Assembly: GCF_055900595.2 (NCBI RefSeq)
Contig: NZ_CM148325.1
DNA: 64,000 nucleotides
Reading direction: 5' to 3' (one strand)
Shown one piece after another: positions 14,947-63,304 of the stretch (position 1 is the stretch's first letter; each line of letters begins with the position of its first letter). Under the pieces are notes generated by a model, which saw only the letters and a list, made by a program, of their open reading frames with translations, had not been told where the DNA came from and searched no databases. The position numbers were made by a program, and so were the translations under genes.

Positions 14947-15150
<204 letters not shown>

Positions 15151-39080: not shown

Positions 39081-39432
39081 GAATAGCAAAAAAGCGCCTT
39101 TAGGGCGCTTTTTTTACATTGGTGGGTCGTGCAGGATGACTCGCTTCGCTCGCCCTTCGGGCCGTCGCCGCGAGCGGCTCCGTTGTTTCGCTACGCTCAA
39201 CTCGAACCTGCTGCAGGTTCGAATCTTTGAATATCCCAGATAGCAAAAAAGCGCCTTTAGGGCGCTTTTTTACATTGGTGGGTCGTGCAGGATGACTCGC
39301 TTCGCTCGCCCTTCGGGCCGTCGCCGCGAGCGGCTCCGTTGTTTCGCTACGCTCAACTCGAACCTGCTGCAGGTTCGAATCTTTGAATATCCCAGATAGC
39401 AAAAAAGCGCCTTTAGGGCGCTTTTTTTACAT
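39081..39432. repeat. Tandem ~156-bp repeats downstream of the tRNA operon, each with a terminator hairpin and a tRNA-Lys 3-prime-end fragment
   Basis: AAAAAAGCGCCTTTAGGGCGCTTTTTT plus TGGTGGGTCGTGCAGGATGACTCG... repeated with period ~156 bp. Confidence 0.6.
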
Positions 39433-39508
39433 TGGTGGGTCGTGCAGGATTCGAACCTGCGACCAATTGATTAAAAGTCAACTGCTCTACCAACTGAGCT
39501 AACGACCC
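39433..39508 (-). tRNA. lysQ: tRNA-Lys (UUU)
   Basis: 76-nt match to tRNA-Lys, anticodon loop CTTTTAA, CCA encoded. Confidence 0.9.
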
Positions 39509-39640
39509 CTTGCGGGATTATGCTGCTTTAATCATTCAGGATGGTGGGTCGTGCAGGATGACTCGACTTCGTCTCGCCCTTCGGGCCGTTGCTGACGCAA
39601 CGTTATCCTTCACGTTCTCTACCAGTAACCACCTTTAAAT

Positions 39641-39716
39641 TGGTGGGTCGTGCAGGATTCGAACCTGCGACCAATTGATTAAAAGTCAACTGCTCTACCA
39701 ACTGAGCTAACGACCC
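39641..39716 (-). tRNA. lysZ: tRNA-Lys (UUU)
   Basis: Identical 76-nt tRNA-Lys copy. Confidence 0.9.
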
Positions 39717-39862
39717 ATACGGGTGTTACCTGAATGATTTCTACTCGGAACCAATCTTTAAGATTAGTGGGTCGTGCAGGATGACTCGCTTCGCTCGCCC
39801 TACGGGCCGTTGCTGACGCATCGTTATCCTTCACGCTTAACATCTGAGTTTGATGTTAAAAC

Positions 39863-39938
39863 TGGTGGGTCGTGCAGGATTCGAACCTGCGACCAATTGA
39901 TTAAAAGTCAACTGCTCTACCAACTGAGCTAACGACCC
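39863..39938 (-). tRNA. lysY: tRNA-Lys (UUU)
   Basis: Identical 76-nt tRNA-Lys copy. Confidence 0.9.
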
Positions 39939-39941
39939 GAG

Positions 39942-40017
39942 TGGTGGGTGATGACGGGATCGAACCGCCGACCCCCTCCTTGTAAGGGAGGTGCTCTCCC
40001 AGCTGAGCTAATCACCC
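39942..40017 (-). tRNA. valZ: tRNA-Val (UAC)
   Basis: 76-nt tRNA, anticodon TAC. Confidence 0.9.
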
Positions 40018-40068
40018 GATACTGCGCTGGATACTACAAACTACTTCCACCGAACCCACCGTAATTAG

Positions 40069-40144
40069 TGGTGGGTCGTGCAGGATTCGAACCTGCGACC
40101 AATTGATTAAAAGTCAACTGCTCTACCAACTGAGCTAACGACCC
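40069..40144 (-). tRNA. lysW: tRNA-Lys (UUU)
   Basis: Identical 76-nt tRNA-Lys copy. Confidence 0.9.
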
Positions 40145-40146
40145 GG

Positions 40147-40222
40147 TGGTGGGTGATGACGGGATCGAACCGCCGACCCCCTCCTTGTAAGGGAGGTGCT
40201 CTCCCAGCTGAGCTAATCACCC
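40147..40222 (-). tRNA. valT: tRNA-Val (UAC)
   Basis: 76-nt tRNA, anticodon TAC. Confidence 0.9.
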
Positions 40223-40357
40223 GATACTGCGCTGGATACTACAACTAACTAGGTTAGTGGTGGGTCGTGCAGGATGACTCGACTTCGTCTCGCCCTTCGG
40301 GCCGTTGCTGACGCAACGTTATCCTTCACGTTTTACTACCGCTTCCACCTTAGCGAT

Positions 40358-40433
40358 TGGTGGGTCGTGCAGGATTCGAACCTGCGACCAATTGATTAAA
40401 AGTCAACTGCTCTACCAACTGAGCTAACGACCC
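40358..40433 (-). tRNA. lysT: tRNA-Lys (UUU)
   Basis: Identical 76-nt tRNA-Lys copy, promoter-proximal. Confidence 0.9.
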
Positions 40434-40597: not shown

Positions 40598-41389
40598 TTA
40601 CATCGCGTTCAGACGTTTTTGTGCCTGTTTAGCGCCATCAGTACCAGGGTATTTACTGATAACCTGCTGGTATACGGCTTTCGCTTTTGCGGTGTCACCT
40701 TTGTCCTGCATGATGACGCCGACTTTAAACATCGCATCTGCAGCCTTCGGTGACTTCGGATAGTTTTTCACTACCGAAGCAAAATAATACGCCGCATCAT
40801 CTTTTTTACCCTTGTTGTAGTTTAACTGACCCAGCCAATAATTGGCGTTTGGCAGGTAAGTTGAATCAGGGTAATTTTTGATGAAATTCTGAAATGCCAC
40901 CATTGCGTCATCCTGGCGGGATTTATCCTGCACCAGCGCAATAGCTGCATTGTAATCCGTGTTTGCATCACCGCTTTTCACCGGCGCGCCAGCATTCGCA
41001 GTACCAGCATCAGCTGTCGGCGTCGTTGATGCCGCCGCACCGCTATGATCGCCGCTGGTTGATTGCGCCGCTGCACCACCGCTGCTGAGGCTATCGATCT
41101 GCAACAGGATCTGCTTTTGCCGCTCCACGACCTGATTCAGTTGATACTGATTTTCCTGAATCTGACCACGCAGGGAATCAATATCGGATTGATTATCAGA
41201 GAGTTGTTGCTGGAGTTGGGTTAAAAGCTGGCTGTGAGCATTAGAAATACGCTCAAGTTGAGTGACGCGGTCTTCGACCGAGCCTGAGCCGACACTACTG
41301 ATTGGTGCCTGAGCAAAAGCGGCCCAGGGGGCCGCTATACCAACCAGTAACGACAGACTCAATAGTTGATGTCTGAAGTTACTGCTCAT
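40598..41389 (-). CDS. cpoB: Cell division coordinator CpoB (YbgF)
   Basis: Signal peptide, coiled coil, C-terminal TPR; last gene of tol-pal. Confidence 0.88.
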   Translation of the reverse strand: MSSNFRHQLLSLSLLVGIAAPWAAFAQAPISSVGSGSVEDRVTQLERISNAHSQLLTQLQQQLSDNQSDIDSLRGQIQENQYQLNQVVERQKQILLQIDSLSSGGAAAQSTSGDHSGAAASTTPTADAGTANAGAPVKSGDANTDYNAAIALVQDKSRQDDAMVAFQNFIKNYPDSTYLPNANYWLGQLNYNKGKKDDAAYYFASVVKNYPKSPKAADAMFKVGVIMQDKGDTAKAKAVYQQVISKYPGTDGAKQAQKRLNAM

Positions 41390-41398
41390 GCAATTCTC

Positions 41399-41944
<546 letters not shown>

Positions 41945-46235: not shown

Positions 46236-46384
46236 TTTACATCCCGGTAATGCAACAAAAGTTAGAGCTTTTAAACGCTGCTACTATACGCGCGCGATTG
46301 AGGTTTGGGAATGAGGGCAAGTTAAGGGAGCGTAAAAATTTATGGGCCTGAAGCGGCCCATAAATTTTTAAAGAGAATTCTGAT

Positions 46385-51356: not shown

Positions 51357-51779
51357 ATGACCCCATCTCAGCTCTCTTTTAATACTCTTCCTGTCAATGC
51401 AACATGCACTTCAGAGATAACAGTAAACACACAAAAATTCTCTGACATCCTCTACTCAGTGGGGTATTCCCTAAAGGATCTGGCTTATCTGAGCAGATGT
51501 CTTGCATCATTACACCCGACACTCGCCAAAAACATTTATGAAACGGAAAATCTCAGCGATCAAAAATTACTTTATATAGATTGCCGTAGTACAAATGAAA
51601 TCAAGATAAATATCTTTTTTGGTCAGCAACGAGAAGGATTAATTGAAATTAGTTCTGACACAGTCATTTTTTCGATACTGTCTTCATTGATTGACTCAGC
51701 TATTTCTGAACATCGACATCAAATCACCATTAACGATTCAAATAATTCTGAACTATTTTATGAGGATTATACTGATTAA
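51357..51779 (+). CDS. Hypothetical protein (140 aa), AT-rich
   Basis: ORF directly downstream of the 314-aa ORF, same strand; no recognised motif. Confidence 0.55.
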   Translation: MTPSQLSFNTLPVNATCTSEITVNTQKFSDILYSVGYSLKDLAYLSRCLASLHPTLAKNIYETENLSDQKLLYIDCRSTNEIKINIFFGQQREGLIEISSDTVIFSILSSLIDSAISEHRHQITINDSNNSELFYEDYTD

Positions 51780-52321
51780 ATCCACTCTGTGCGAACCTGT
51801 CCTGCATTTATGCCAGAAGTATTAGAATCTTTGATTAACGTTACTCGTACTGGTAGCACCTTCATGTGCCTCTCTTTTTTACGAACAATCAAAAGAACTA
51901 ACAAAGGGCATAATTCGTATAAATCATTAACCATTTGTTATATTCAACATTTTTTTACATTAAGCAGAGATGAATTGCAGTGAAATTCAAGTTAAATTTT
52001 ACAAAATGTATTACTCATGGCTAAAAAATCTCCCCAAAATGCAAATTAGAAGTTGATCACAATTATCTCAATACATCAAATAAAGTTAATTTTAAAAATT
52101 TAACATTCATGACATTAGTTGACATAACACGCTGAATTAAAATGAGAATTTAAAAACACACTTTAAACAATCATTTCCCGAAAGACATTTTGAAAATAGA
52201 TCAATTGCAACATTACGGTCAGATAAAGACACTCCTCTGATATTAAACCTGTGCCGTTATGAACGGCCATAAATACGACGTGTGTAACTTAATTTACTCT
52301 CTGTCTTACAAAGGATTACCC

Positions 52322-56867: not shown

Positions 56868-58238
56868 ATGGCTCGTTCTTTTAAAGTCTTATCGCCAACG
56901 GCAATCCTCGGGTATGGATTCCCGGAAGAGAGCTTCCGCAAAGCGATGGCAGAATCGCCCGATCTGATCGCCGTTGATGCAGGCTCTTCCGATCCTGGCC
57001 CCCACTACCTCGGGGCGGGCAAACCGTTTACCGATCGCGCAGGGGTCAAGCGCGATCTACGCTATATGATCACCGCAGGCGTGCAAAATAATATACCGGT
57101 AGTGATCGGAACGGCCGGCGGTTCTGGTGCCGCTCCACACCTGGAGTGGTGCCGAGAAATAATTCATGAGATTGCCCGGGAAGAGCACCTCGCGTTCTCG
57201 ATGGCGCTGATCCCGGCAGACGTTGACAAAGCCATCGTCCACCAGGCGCTGGATAACGGCAAAATCACGGCGCTGGATTTTGTCCCGCCGTTAACCCACG
57301 ACGCGATTGACGAAAGTACGTATATCGTCGCGCAAATGGGCATCGAACCCTTCCAGCAGGCGCTGAAAGAAGGCGCGCAAGTGGTGCTGGGCGGGCGCGC
57401 TTACGACCCGGCCTGCTTTGCTGCGCTACCGATCATGCAAGGCTTTGATGAAGGTCTGGCGCTGCATTGTGGGAAAATCCTTGAATGCGCGGCAATCGCC
57501 GCAACGCCCGGCTCAGGCTCTGACTGTGCGATGGGCATCATTGATGACAACGGCTTTACGCTGAAGACATTTAATCCGAAGCGTAAATTTACCGAAACGT
57601 CAGCGGCTGCACACACACTGTATGAGAAATCCGATCCCTACTTTCTGCCAGGACCTGGCGGCGTGCTAAACCTGAAAGGTTGCACATTTAAAGCGATCAA
57701 TGATGGCGAAGTTTACGTCAGCGGTTCTAAGCATGAAGAAACGCCCTATGCCCTGAAACTGGAAGGTGCGCGGCGGGTGGGTTTCCGCTGTTTGACCATC
57801 GCCGGAACGCGCGACCCGATCATGATCGCCGGGATCGATAACATCATCGATGAAGTCAAAACCAGCGTTTCGCGTAATCTGTCCTTAGACGATGACAGCA
57901 TTCGCATCAATTTCCACCTGTACGGCAAAAACGGGGTGATGGGCGACCATGAACCGATGCAAACTGCCGGGCATGAGCTGGGGATTGTCCTTGATGTAGT
58001 TGCACCGACCCAGGATATTGCCAATAGCGTTTGCTCGCTGGTGCGCTCTACCATGCTGCACTACGGCTATGAAAACCGCATCGCTACCGCAGGCAACCTG
58101 GCGTTCCCGTTCTCCCCTTCTGATATCCAGGGCGGGCCGGTATACGAATTTTCCATATATCACCTGATTGAAGCCAACGACGCTCTGCGTTTTGATTTCC
58201 ATATTGAACAGGTGACGCCAGAAGGAGTTCAGGCATGA
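56868..58238 (+). CDS. DUF1446 (AtuA-like) family protein, function unknown
   Basis: 456 aa; N-terminal pattern recalled for AtuA-like proteins; coupled to next ORF. Confidence 0.65.
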   Translation: MARSFKVLSPTAILGYGFPEESFRKAMAESPDLIAVDAGSSDPGPHYLGAGKPFTDRAGVKRDLRYMITAGVQNNIPVVIGTAGGSGAAPHLEWCREIIHEIAREEHLAFSMALIPADVDKAIVHQALDNGKITALDFVPPLTHDAIDESTYIVAQMGIEPFQQALKEGAQVVLGGRAYDPACFAALPIMQGFDEGLALHCGKILECAAIAATPGSGSDCAMGIIDDNGFTLKTFNPKRKFTETSAAAHTLYEKSDPYFLPGPGGVLNLKGCTFKAINDGEVYVSGSKHEETPYALKLEGARRVGFRCLTIAGTRDPIMIAGIDNIIDEVKTSVSRNLSLDDDSIRINFHLYGKNGVMGDHEPMQTAGHELGIVLDVVAPTQDIANSVCSLVRSTMLHYGYENRIATAGNLAFPFSPSDIQGGPVYEFSIYHLIEANDALRFDFHIEQVTPEGVQA

Positions 58239-58552
58239 AACAGTCAATTGTCTCACTGGCGCAAGTCATTCGTTCGAAAAATGCCGGACCTTACGAACTG
58301 GTTTTAGATATTTTATTTAAAACCAAAGAAAACTATGAGCGAGTAAAATCATCAGGGCAATTAACCCCAGAACTGATTGCGCGCTTATATCATGTTGAAC
58401 CTGACTTTATTCATCGTATTGTCTGGTTTGATCCTTCTAACGCAGTAAAAATTGTCATGCCACGAGATATTATCTCCGGGAATGTAGGTGACAATGATGT
58501 CTATGGCGCACAGCAACATGCACCTTTATTAAATATGAGTTTCGATTTGTAA
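58235..58552 (+). CDS. DUF4387-like small protein, partner of the DUF1446 protein
   Basis: 105 aa; start overlaps upstream stop. Confidence 0.55.
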   Translation: MKQSIVSLAQVIRSKNAGPYELVLDILFKTKENYERVKSSGQLTPELIARLYHVEPDFIHRIVWFDPSNAVKIVMPRDIISGNVGDNDVYGAQQHAPLLNMSFDL

Positions 58553-58712
58553 AAATCCGAACACTTTTAGCCAACTGACATCCCGTCACTTATTGCAGCT
58601 CAACACTTCAGCTATTTGTAAGGTTGTTATAGCAGGTAGATGCCTGAATCTCTATTCAGGCATCCACTTCTCCTGATTCTGATTTATCGCCGTGCACCTG
58701 ATGGAGGAAAAA

Positions 58713-59993
58713 ATGAAGAAAATAAGTTTAACCACGATGATTCTTTTGGCGCTGGTACTTGGAATGATTATCGGCGTAGTGCTCAATAACACTGCTTCAC
58801 CGGAAACAGCAAAACTCTATGCGCAAGAAATATCGATATTCACGACGATTTTCTTACGACTGATAAAAATGATTATCGCTCCGTTAGTGGTCTCTACCCT
58901 GGTGGTAGGTATTGCTAAAATGGGCGATGCCAAAGCCCTTGGTCGTATTTTTTCTAAAACACTCTTTTTATTTATTTGCGCCTCATTGCTGTCAATTGCC
59001 TTAGGCTTGATAACGGTAAATTTCTTCATGCCAGGCACAGGAATTAATTTTGTTGCACACGGTGCCGAAACCACCGGAGTGGTCGCGTCAGAACCCTTTA
59101 CACTAAAAGTATTTATTTCGCATGCTTTCCCCACCAGCATTGTCGATGCCATGGCGCACAATGAAATTTTGCAAATCGTGGTGTTCTCAATTTTCCTCGG
59201 CTGTAGCCTGACGGCGATTGGTGAGAAAGGCAGCGCCATCGTTCACGCCTTAGATTCGCTGGCACATGCCATGTTAAAGCTCACTGGCTACGTCATGCTC
59301 TTCGCTCCCCTGACCGTATTCGCCGCTATTTCAGCATTGATTGCTGAACGAGGACTGGCAGTTATGGTGAGCGCCGGGATCTTTATGGGTGAATTTTATT
59401 TCACCATGTTATTACTTTGGGTGCTGCTTATCGGTCTGGCCATCGTTTATGTCGGCCCCTGCATCAGACGCCTGACCCGCGCCCTTTCTGAACCCGCCCT
59501 GCTGGCATTTACCACATCCAGTTCTGAAGCTGCTTTTCCGGGAACGCTTGAAAAACTGGAGCAATTTGGCGTTTCCCCCAAAATTGCCAGCTTTGTCTTA
59601 CCCATTGGCTACTCATTTAATCTCGTTGGATCAATGGCCTACTGCTCCTTCGCCACAGTTTTCATCGCCCAGGCCTGCAATATCCATTTATCCATCGGTG
59701 AGCAAATCACCATGCTGTTGATCCTGATGTTGACCTCGAAAGGAATGGCTGGCGTACCACGCGCCTCAATGGTGGTTATCGCCGCCACGCTCAACCAGTT
59801 CAATATTCCGGAAGCGGGGCTGATCTTGCTGATGGGCGTTGATCCGTTCCTTGATATGGGGCGTTCCGCGACAAACGTCATGAGCAACGCAATGGGCGCT
59901 GCGATGGTGAGTCGGTGGGAAGGCGAACATTTCGGCGAGGGTTGTCGGGGTAAAGCATTAAAACCCAATGAATCGAACGTTGCTCTGCCCTGA
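58713..59993 (+). CDS. Dicarboxylate/amino acid:cation symporter (GltP/DctA family)
   Basis: GGAGG SD; polytopic membrane protein with DAACS-type motifs. Confidence 0.8.
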   Translation: MKKISLTTMILLALVLGMIIGVVLNNTASPETAKLYAQEISIFTTIFLRLIKMIIAPLVVSTLVVGIAKMGDAKALGRIFSKTLFLFICASLLSIALGLITVNFFMPGTGINFVAHGAETTGVVASEPFTLKVFISHAFPTSIVDAMAHNEILQIVVFSIFLGCSLTAIGEKGSAIVHALDSLAHAMLKLTGYVMLFAPLTVFAAISALIAERGLAVMVSAGIFMGEFYFTMLLLWVLLIGLAIVYVGPCIRRLTRALSEPALLAFTTSSSEAAFPGTLEKLEQFGVSPKIASFVLPIGYSFNLVGSMAYCSFATVFIAQACNIHLSIGEQITMLLILMLTSKGMAGVPRASMVVIAATLNQFNIPEAGLILLMGVDPFLDMGRSATNVMSNAMGAAMVSRWEGEHFGEGCRGKALKPNESNVALP

Positions 59994-62368: not shown

Positions 62369-62400
62369 CTGCGCCTGGCATCCCGCCAGGCGCAGGTTTT
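62369..62400. terminator. Bidirectional terminator between convergent genes
   Basis: 10-bp stem CTGCGCCTGG/CCAGGCGCAG with T-run. Confidence 0.5.
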
Positions 62401-63304
62401 ACATCTCCTGCGGTACGACCGATTTCGCCAGCAACCATTCACGAAATTGCTGCAAGTGCGGAGAGTCAGACTTCTCTTCCTGCCACGTCATAATAAAACG
62501 ATTACCGGTACGAATAGGCACATCACAGGGAATCACCATATCGCCACTATCCAAATCATGTTGAATAGCGAACCGTGGTAACAGCGCCACGCCGAGATTA
62601 GAGCGCACGGCGGCAATCAGCATTGAAAGCAAATCGAAACGTGGTCCGTTATTGACCAGCGGACTGCTAACGCCAGATAAAGCAAACCACTCTTCCCAGC
62701 CAGTAATACGGGTGCTTTGATGCAGAAGTGGTAACTCAGTAAGCAGTTCTGCCACTGACAGTTTTTGATCGGACATTGCAAGCAAACTGCCGCTGCATAC
62801 CGGCAAAATCTCCTCTTCAAAGAGATATTCTACTTCCGCCCAGGGCGCGCAAAAATTTTCGCGCATAATGACAGCATCGTACTCCCGATTAAGAAAATCG
62901 CCGTTATTAGCTAAAGAATGAATATTAACAATAATATCGGGATGTAACTTTGTGAATTCATGTAAATTTGGGATTAACCAGTGGGTACTAAAAGTAGGAT
63001 TAACGGCAAGTTCAATAACCTGAACCGTAGGCTGCCATGTCATAATCGTATTGGTATCGCGCTCCAGCTTATTTAATGTTTCTTTTACTATCCCCAGGTA
63101 ATACTTCCCTGCATCATTAAGAAAAATGCGTTTTTTAGAGTGTGAAAATAACGGAGTATGTAAAAATTCCTCCAGCGCACTTACTTGTCTGAATACAGCA
63201 CTTTGGGTTAACGCTAACTCCTCTGCCGCTCTGGTATAACTTTCATGTCGTGCGACGACCTCAAAAGTCACCAGCAGCTCCGTTTTAGGTATTTTTCCTC
63301 GCAT
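62399..63304 (-). CDS. LysR-family transcriptional regulator (likely regulator of the island operon)
   Basis: N-terminal HTH (ESYTRAAEELALTQSAVFRQV); start taken at second ATG. Confidence 0.8.
   Translation of the reverse strand: MRGKIPKTELLVTFEVVARHESYTRAAEELALTQSAVFRQVSALEEFLHTPLFSHSKKRIFLNDAGKYYLGIVKETLNKLERDTNTIMTWQPTVQVIELAVNPTFSTHWLIPNLHEFTKLHPDIIVNIHSLANNGDFLNREYDAVIMRENFCAPWAEVEYLFEEEILPVCSGSLLAMSDQKLSVAELLTELPLLHQSTRITGWEEWFALSGVSSPLVNNGPRFDLLSMLIAAVRSNLGVALLPRFAIQHDLDSGDMVIPCDVPIRTGNRFIMTWQEEKSDSPHLQQFREWLLAKSVVPQEM

Follow-up and report, generated by a model that had tools for sequence, protein, structure and literature searches.

The spacer upstream of a gltP-type transporter gene contains a palindrome whose transcript probably folds into a conserved RNA hairpin, termed P2, that would act post-transcriptionally on the gltP leader. 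Judging from the comparison of orthologous spacers, we assign to this reading a probability of roughly 85%. The palindrome had already been noticed in a first-pass annotation of the 64,000-nt stretch of DNA analyzed (hereafter the window). The present analysis goes beyond it in two respects: P2 covaries across genera, and it is a member of a larger conserved leader.

The gene cluster that harbors P2 is an accessory trait of approximately one fifth of the complete Escherichia coli genomes, including those of O157:H7, O55:H7, and O145, and of many opportunistic enterobacteria. A selected RNA structure placed directly before the gene of the substrate transporter offers a testable handle on how uptake is tuned with respect to the B12-dependent enzymes. 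Taken by itself, the hairpin of E. coli is a modest result, belonging to a familiar class and involving no new mechanism. The leader found in Citrobacter and Klebsiella is more interesting than P2 alone and represents a candidate new cis-regulatory RNA that could be curated, Rfam being one suitable database.

Genomic context and geometry of the palindrome

As described in the first-pass annotation, the spacer is flanked by a DUF4387 gene upstream (Pfam E = 2.6e-39) and by a sodium:dicarboxylate symporter gene downstream (E = 2.3e-102) (Table 1). Because the six upstream genes overlap or are only 3 to 18 nt apart, the 160-nt spacer stands out. According to Pfam and RefSeq, glmS, glmL, and glmE encode glutamate mutase and its chaperone, and mal encodes methylaspartate ammonia-lyase. 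On the same strand, gltP is followed by the genes for the class I fumarase/mesaconase FumD and for CobO, and a LysR-family gene (62399-63304, minus strand) is convergent with cobO. This gene set corresponds to the methylaspartate glutamate-fermentation cluster of Kronen and Berg (PMC4682846), in which the transporter was named GltP, a glutamate transporter (Fig. 5 therein). The same authors found no conditions that induce the cluster, induction having been attempted in O157:H7 (PMC4682846), and our literature search retrieved neither transcript data nor a prior description of the locus. The cluster is inserted between sucCD and cydAB, and the island region was present in 1124 of the 5426 complete E. 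coli genomes, always in one copy. The cluster begins with glmS, which is preceded by an untranslated gap of ~540 nt (51779-52321) that has no Rfam match, including none to a cobalamin riboswitch; the promoter and regulatory region of the operon is presumably located in this gap.

The transporter gene starts at ATG 58713, 5 nt past the GGAGG sequence, and RefSeq concurs with this assignment. A mechanical list of open reading frames had placed the start at GTG 58692, which is displaced by the ATG with its GGAGG and by the RefSeq annotation.

Table 1. Coordinates of the gltP leader and its neighboring features in the window
Feature	Position	Strand	Remarks
DUF4387 gene	58235..58552	+	Last of six tightly packed genes (glmS, glmL, glmE, mal, AtuA-like, DUF4387); Pfam and RefSeq
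Intercistronic spacer (gltP leader)	58553..58712	+	160 nt; 5' half (58553-58633) diverged from the conserved leader of other genera
Extended P2 helix	58634..58669	+	15 pairs and one A58638·C58665 mismatch (window allele)
P2 core hairpin	58639..58664	+	11 perfect pairs, GAUGCCUGAAU/AUUCAGGCAUC, CUCU loop; homologous to columns 89-101/113-125 of alignment A1
Pyrimidine-rich, G-poor tail (predicted single-stranded)	58668..58697	+	From P2 to the ribosome-binding site; same position as the (A/G)CCCUAC tail of other genera
Shine-Dalgarno sequence and gltP start codon	58703..58715	+	GGAGG at 58703-58707, ATG at 58713-58715; outside the hairpin
gltP-type dicarboxylate/amino acid:cation symporter gene	58713..59993	+	Pfam and RefSeq

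The inverted repeat reported in the first-pass annotation at 58639-58664 was recovered exactly, with 11 perfect pairs and a 4-nt loop. G58639 and ATGCCTGAAT (58640-49) form the left arm and are followed by CTCT (58650-53) and by the right arm ATTCAGGCATC (58654-64), and four of the 11 pairs are G-C. The claim of a stable hairpin likewise held, the extended helix of the window allele (58634-58669) having a predicted folding energy of -19.7 kcal/mol (z = -4.9). The hairpin pattern occurred a single time in the window, even when 3 mismatches were allowed, and was matched in none of 100 shuffles. In block-shuffled windows, the mean number of perfect hairpins (arms of 11 bp or more, loops of 3 to 8 nt) was 0.06, and 5 of 100 such windows contained any. 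Terminator-like sites at 39088, 39245, 39401, 46333, and 62369 account for the remaining real hairpins of that size in the window. P2 is unlikely to have arisen by chance.

The allele present in the window, whose twelfth pair is an A·C mismatch, is rare, as a 61-nt probe matched at least 99% in only 16 records. In most E. coli, including O157:H7, O55:H7, O145, and IAI39, position 58665 is a T, which results in a perfect 14-bp stem, or in one of 16 bp with one G·U pair; the O157:H7 allele reaches -24.3 kcal/mol as compared to the -19.7 kcal/mol of the window allele. The 1124 matching E. coli records shared at least 90% identity over the region, and six of their alleles were aligned. The changes among these aligned alleles concern the loop (CUCU to UUUU), the exchange A58658G, by which a U-A pair becomes a U·G wobble, and the one outer-pair mismatch of the rare allele. 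The ATG at 58640, which lies inside the stem, is specific to E. coli and is not kept in other genera.

P2 is not a dispersed repeat of the REP/BIME, ERIC, or MITE type, since a 43-nt probe centered on the hairpin matched no other locus, and matched exclusively in the 1123 genomes with the island; the two places recorded per genome correspond to the palindrome matching both strands. Insertions of IS1 were observed in strain 100416 (L060:2249-3030), where DUF4387 and the left arm of the hairpin were removed, and in strain E200086 (L001:11134-11831), where fumD was split. A metagenome-assembled contig labeled 'Collinsella sp.' (L002, JAIJJM010000101.1) encodes DUF4387 and GltP proteins that are 100% identical to those of the window and carries the majority E. 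coli leader allele; it is probably a mis-binned E. coli contig.

Covariation of P2 and the wider leader in other genera

A genome scan with the DUF4387 protein retrieved 58 loci. The order DUF4387-spacer-gltP is kept in Escherichia, Citrobacter, Klebsiella, Enterobacter, Lelliottia, Pluralibacter, and Buttiauxella, as well as in Salmonella enterica subsp. arizonae and diarizonae, Yersinia, Morganella, and Pseudescherichia, with spacers of between 120 and 364 nt. Thirty-five spacers, representing at least 8 genera, were aligned (A1), and RNAalifold placed the hairpin at the columns homologous to 58636-58667. Double-sided changes were observed at 12 of the 13 P2 pairs, and 94.6% of the cells were paired; these values were reached by none of 500 shuffles, and sliding the partners by 1 to 3 columns left 19 to 47% paired. 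The corresponding stems include GAUGCCUGAAU in E. coli, GCGUGCGCCUGAGC in C. amalonaticus, GUGUGUGCCUUGG in Buttiauxella, and GCGAGCACCUGAGCG in Citrobacter Awk4. The arms are 75 to 78% identical, as compared to 54% at the 4-fold degenerate sites of DUF4387, which served as a neutral proxy, and the loop is between 4 and 12 nt long, with a pairwise identity of 64%. The ratio of G·U to A·C was 43:7 in P2 and 62:1 in P1, a second helix of the leader, against permutation baselines of 56:20 and 76:17, respectively; for P2 alone, this G·U excess is moderate, at about twice the compositional baseline.

These data point to selection on the helix itself, rather than on its sequence or its loop. Because compensatory change, free loop length, and G·U excess occur together, P2 appears to be a sense-strand RNA helix and not a DNA operator. 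Compensatory substitutions and a sense-strand signature are the marks of a generic conserved cis-acting mRNA structure, and P2 displays both.

In Escherichia sp. MOD1-EC7003, a sister lineage, the corresponding position is occupied by a hairpin whose sequence differs. The distribution of P2 has exceptions. The spacers of Yersinia and of the Pseudescherichia group contain P1 but no P2 equivalent, and P2 is therefore not indispensable. The lineages that were folded or scanned have a stable hairpin in the spacer and no clear U-tract 3' of the stem, with the possible exception of Morganella. Escherichia sp. E1V33 and E. whittamii (L004:4340-4400 and L005:4340-4400) have no gltP, and their DUF4387 gene is followed by fumD; ~33 nt past the DUF4387 stop codon, they contain unrelated hairpins of 13 to 17 bp (-18 and -19 kcal/mol) without a U-tract. 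ERIC-like insertions were found in Klebsiella oxytoca NBRC 105695 (L024:4319-4685), directly past the DUF4387 stop codon, and in C. amalonaticus S646 (L013:4319-4603), between CCCUAC and the Shine-Dalgarno (SD) sequence. In the latter strain, another local helix, formed with the linker GCGGUUGG, takes the place of the canonical P2; this hints that P2 works together with the gltP side.

Outside Escherichia, a leader of ~165 nt is conserved (spacers L006-L037, L052, and L055; for example, L012:4319-4491 and L019:4319-4489). It was found in Citrobacter, Klebsiella, Enterobacter, Salmonella arizonae/diarizonae, Buttiauxella, Lelliottia, and Pluralibacter, and parts of it reach Yersinia. From 5' to 3', it is composed of an A/C-rich G-free tract (2.5% G), P1, a linker, P2, the (A/G)CCCUAC sequence, a C-rich G-poor tail, and CCGAUGGAG, which includes the SD sequence. 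P1 comprises 9 pairs, 6 of them with double-sided changes, and its loop contains GCUGU. The linker, AAUUAUUCAUGCGGUUGGUCACAACAGG (also given as AAUUAUUCAUGCGGUUGGUCAC), is 90% identical, which is close to the value at codon positions 1+2 (95%), as compared to 54% at neutral sites, and the SD block shows 99% identity across genera. The tail past P2 contains 38% C and 5.7% G in the 35 spacers, and 32% C and 16% G in E. coli. Such a conservation of the linker next to P2 exceeds what a generic barrier would need and points to a putative sequence-specific regulatory leader outside Escherichia.

In five of the nine Citrobacter-type leaders folded (L012, L008, L028, L026, and L035), the minimum free energy (MFE) structure pairs the 5' sequence UCCAUUGG with the SD sequence, which has an unpaired probability of 0.06 to 0.27, and a GGUUGGU/ACCARCC helix encloses P2. 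Together with an alternative UUCAU.CG/CG.AUGGA pairing, these long-range helices are 87 to 98% base-paired across the 35 sequences, as compared to 24 to 51% when slid. Because both strands are nearly invariant, no covariation was detected in the anti-SD and enclosing helices of the 35 sequences. Shuffles reached the observed values; a single U-A to C-G exchange distinguishes the enclosing helix of the main group from that of the Pseudescherichia group. We consider these predicted long-range helices to be hypothetical.

Of these elements, E. coli has kept and strengthened P2, whereas P1, the linker, the CCCUAC tail, and the two anti-SD sequences were lost. The E. coli SD sequence is predicted to be largely accessible (unpaired probability of 0.34 to 0.43), and the spacer as a whole does not exceed shuffles in folding stability (z = -0.72). 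MOD1-EC7003 retains P2 and a P1-like hairpin of different sequence; its losses comprise the canonical P1 together with the conserved loop, the consensus of the linker, and the two anti-SD sequences.

Possible roles of the hairpin in the transcript

The first-pass annotation had proposed an attenuator, an RNA-processing site, or a regulator-binding palindrome, by which the transporter would be decoupled from the upstream enzymes, and it had remarked that no clean T-run follows the stem. The latter observation was confirmed: CACTTCTCCTGATTC lies 3' of the stem, and a terminator scan makes no call. An attenuator in the sense of an intrinsic terminator can be discarded, as a U-tract past the stem is absent from E. 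coli and from the 34 orthologous spacers. Like intrinsic terminators and attenuators, P2 is a strong, G+C-rich stem-loop (11 to 16 bp, -19.7 to -24.3 kcal/mol) that follows a coding region. Unlike them, it is followed by CACUUCUCC in the window and by ACCCUAC in the orthologs, and the scan made no call in E. coli, L012, or L019.

Decoupling at the RNA level fits all the observations and is plausible as the preferred reading. We tentatively favor, at somewhat less than even odds, the view that P2 forms a structural boundary, resistant to nucleases, by which the transporter segment is uncoupled from the enzyme genes 5' of it. The palindrome would be transcribed within the operon mRNA and would fold into the very stable stem-loop P2, one structural module of the untranslated gltP leader that would not cause termination by itself. 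Endonucleolytic cleavage or premature 3'-end formation would take place in the flanking G-poor single-stranded tracts. The helix would then block 3'-to-5' exonucleases on the side of the enzyme genes and/or cap the 5' end of the gltP-fumD-cobO segment. As an outcome, the transporter segment and the six enzyme genes would differ in stability and output. Extra conserved elements, lost in E. coli, enclose this helix in Citrobacter, Klebsiella, Enterobacter, and Salmonella.

The boundary role is favored because only the stability of the helix is constrained, because the G-depleted flanks are presumably single-stranded, and because a stable hairpin without a clear U-tract was found in the lineages folded or scanned, Morganella possibly excepted. 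Stable intercistronic stem-loops without a U-tract, such as the malE-malF REP and the Rhodobacter puf hairpins, are exonuclease barriers that set segmental mRNA stability, and transcripts terminated by Rho have their 3' ends trimmed back to hairpins of this kind. P2 is similar to both examples in that it is a stable U-tract-less stem-loop inside a polycistronic operon, with the helix and not the sequence being of importance, and in that it lies between genes for abundant soluble proteins and a membrane-transporter gene. Unlike the malE-malF REP, P2 is single-copy, does not match the REP consensus, and is found in a sequence-conserved leader in other genera, and its boundary role here is one that we infer.

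A less probable explanation is that P2 is the scaffold helix of a dedicated translational riboregulator of gltP. The sequence UCCAUUGG, located close to the 5' end, or the linker sequence UUCAUGCG would pair with the SD region CCGAUGGAG, and the GGUUGGU/ACCARCC helix would enclose P2. By shortening the enclosed loop, P2 would promote a closed, translation-off fold, to be opened by a ligand, a small RNA, a protein, temperature, or ribosomes terminating on DUF4387. The occluded SD sequences in the five MFE folds enclosing P2, the pairing level of the long-range helices relative to the slid controls, the conservation of the linker and the SD block relative to neutral sites, and the U-A to C-G exchange in the enclosing helix are all consistent with this model. 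However, the long-range helices show no covariation, with shuffles equaling the observed values, and both anti-SD sequences are absent from E. coli, MOD1-EC7003, the Pseudescherichia group, and Yersinia. The E. coli SD sequence is not sequestered, the folding stability of the whole E. coli spacer is that of shuffles, and no Rfam match was obtained. The model thus suits the Citrobacter-type leader better than the E. coli leader.

This class of regulators is known in E. coli, since a CpoB/ybgF thermometer (RF02782) is encoded elsewhere in the same window. Like the CpoB/ybgF intercistronic RNA, P2 is a structured RNA between two cistrons and upstream of a ribosome-binding site, and the SD sequence is occluded in the predicted Citrobacter-type folds. 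Unlike it, P2 ends 35 nt before the SD sequence, which it excludes, and has no Rfam match; in addition, the occlusion is not accompanied by covariation and is absent from E. coli. An SD-sequestering regulator or thermometer in E. coli was rejected on this basis, given that the hairpin ends at 58669, that the SD sequence is located at 58703-58707, and that the latter has an unpaired probability of 0.34 to 0.43.

It is rather unlikely, though conceivable, that the ~165-nt leader as a whole (P1, linker, P2, and tail) is an undescribed cis-regulatory RNA, with the E. coli P2 as its surviving helix, that functions as a signal-responsive switch of the translation or stability of the glutamate transporter. 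The signal could be a metabolite, as in a riboswitch, or a small RNA. Nucleotides 1 to 7 (GUAGGGU, from L187:400-510) of Spot 42, the catabolite-repression small RNA, are complementary to (A/G)CCCUAC (A1 columns 129-135; for example, L012:4444-4450). The match is limited to a 7-mer and is statistically weak, with z values between about -1 and -2.8. The tail is conserved from Yersinia to Citrobacter, occurs also in MOD1-EC7003, and is absent from E. coli; we regard this complementarity as a possible lead only. The leader shares with the 'motif' RNAs of the Breaker laboratory, such as the opuB motif of Enterobacteriaceae (PMC11109978), the covarying stems, the highly conserved unpaired nucleotides, the fixed position upstream of one gene family, and the narrow phylogenetic range. 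Unlike these motifs, it is absent from those surveys and from Rfam 15, and its sole partner candidate is the 7-nt Spot 42 complementarity.

The C-rich tail raises the question of Rho. In a Rho-dependent attenuator, poor translation of gltP would allow Rho to load on the C-rich G-poor tail and to terminate transcription within gltP, and P2 would serve as a pause signal and protective 3' end. We consider this improbable. The base composition of the tail across the 35 spacers (C 38%, G 5.7%), the lack of an intrinsic terminator, and the location of the hairpin immediately 5' of the tract in all P2-bearing orthologs argue for it, but the C-rich tract measures merely ~31-33 nt, whereas typical Rho loading sites are longer, and the C>G bias is weak in E. 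coli itself (C 32% vs G 16%).

Equally improbable is that the E. coli P2 is a functionless relic of the ancestral leader that owes its perfection to a template-switch (hairpin-templated) mutation, a route by which perfect long palindromes can arise. The E. coli variation, restricted in the six alleles to the loop, the U·G wobble, and one rare outer-pair mismatch, argues against this view, as does the hairpin of different sequence that the sister lineage MOD1-EC7003 keeps at the same place. Compatible with a relic are the losses that E. coli has undergone in its leader (P1, conserved linker, CCCUAC tail, and the two anti-SD sequences), the disruption of the locus by IS1 in some strains, and the observation that the cluster was not inducible in O157:H7 (PMC4682846).

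Finally, the regulator-binding palindrome of the first-pass annotation, that is, a double-stranded DNA operator for a dimeric regulator (the LysR-type protein encoded at 62399-63304, or LexA) that would control an internal gltP promoter, is highly improbable: the spacer does contain a perfect dyad in non-coding DNA and the cluster a LysR-family gene, but the arms diverge with pairing kept, half-sites (LysR-type T-N11-A or those of another dimer) vary at 12 of 13 stem positions on both sides, a spacing of 4 to 12 bp would rotate them relative to each other, G·U exceeds A·C on the sense strand, and A58658G yields a U·G pair. A scan for sigma-70-like promoters on the plus strand of the spacer gave no hit in E. 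coli or in the two Citrobacter spacers L012 and L019, although an activator-dependent promoter could be present. The LexA consensus is CTGT-N8-ACAG; the E. coli core CCTGAATCTCTATTCAGG (CTGA-N8-TCAG) fits only the minimal CTG-N10-CAG and does not have the T and A that flank CTG and CAG in LexA boxes, and in the orthologs this spacing is absent, CTG and CAG being separated by ~20 nt.

Further candidates and other features of the window

Comparisons with known RNA families did not assign P2 to any of them. In Rfam 15, no relevant match was obtained at E<=10 for the window spacer or the Citrobacter L012 spacer, and there were no matches at gathering score in 14 orthologous loci or at the P2 position in the whole-window scan. 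Cobalamin and glutamine riboswitches, thermometers, leaders, and small RNAs were rejected as the identity of P2, as none of their Rfam covariance models matched. The leader is not listed in two surveys of enterobacterial structured RNAs. A metagenome scan was conducted with the 14-mer CATGCGGTTGGTCA, a pattern that proved too short: GATGGAG was present within 130 nt downstream in none of the 120 stretches fetched, the seven stretches inspected look coding, and the matches appear to be due to chance.

An upstream open reading frame or leader peptide was also rejected, given that the AUG of the linker opens frames of 10 to 101 codons in all three reading frames and is lost in several taxa. Pairing with GcvB, which recognizes C/A-rich targets, was dismissed since the duplex energies of its region R1 equaled those of shuffles (z ~0).

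Several genera have a hairpin of their own 3' of gltP (L010:5793-5814, L008:5781-5804, and L012:5859-5889); it takes the form of a classic terminator with a T-run in Buttiauxella and of a REP-like palindrome in C. amalonaticus. In those genera, gltP may be the last gene of the transcription unit.

Elsewhere in the window, an 11-bp perfect inverted repeat, CTGCGCCTGGCATCCCGCCAGGCGCAG, is located at 62369-62395 between the convergent cobO and LysR-family genes, and the same sequence is found in L004; it is probably a shared terminator. A 16-bp perfect palindrome at 46333-46370, TAAAAATTTATGGGCC-TGAAGC-GGCCCATAAATTTTTA, has A/T runs on both sides and looks like a bidirectional terminator. Rfam matches at gathering score, all on the minus strand, correspond to a tRNA array interleaved with RtT repeats (39120-40433), the CpoB/ybgF RNA thermometer (41360-41498, RF02782), and naRNA4 (15000-15070).
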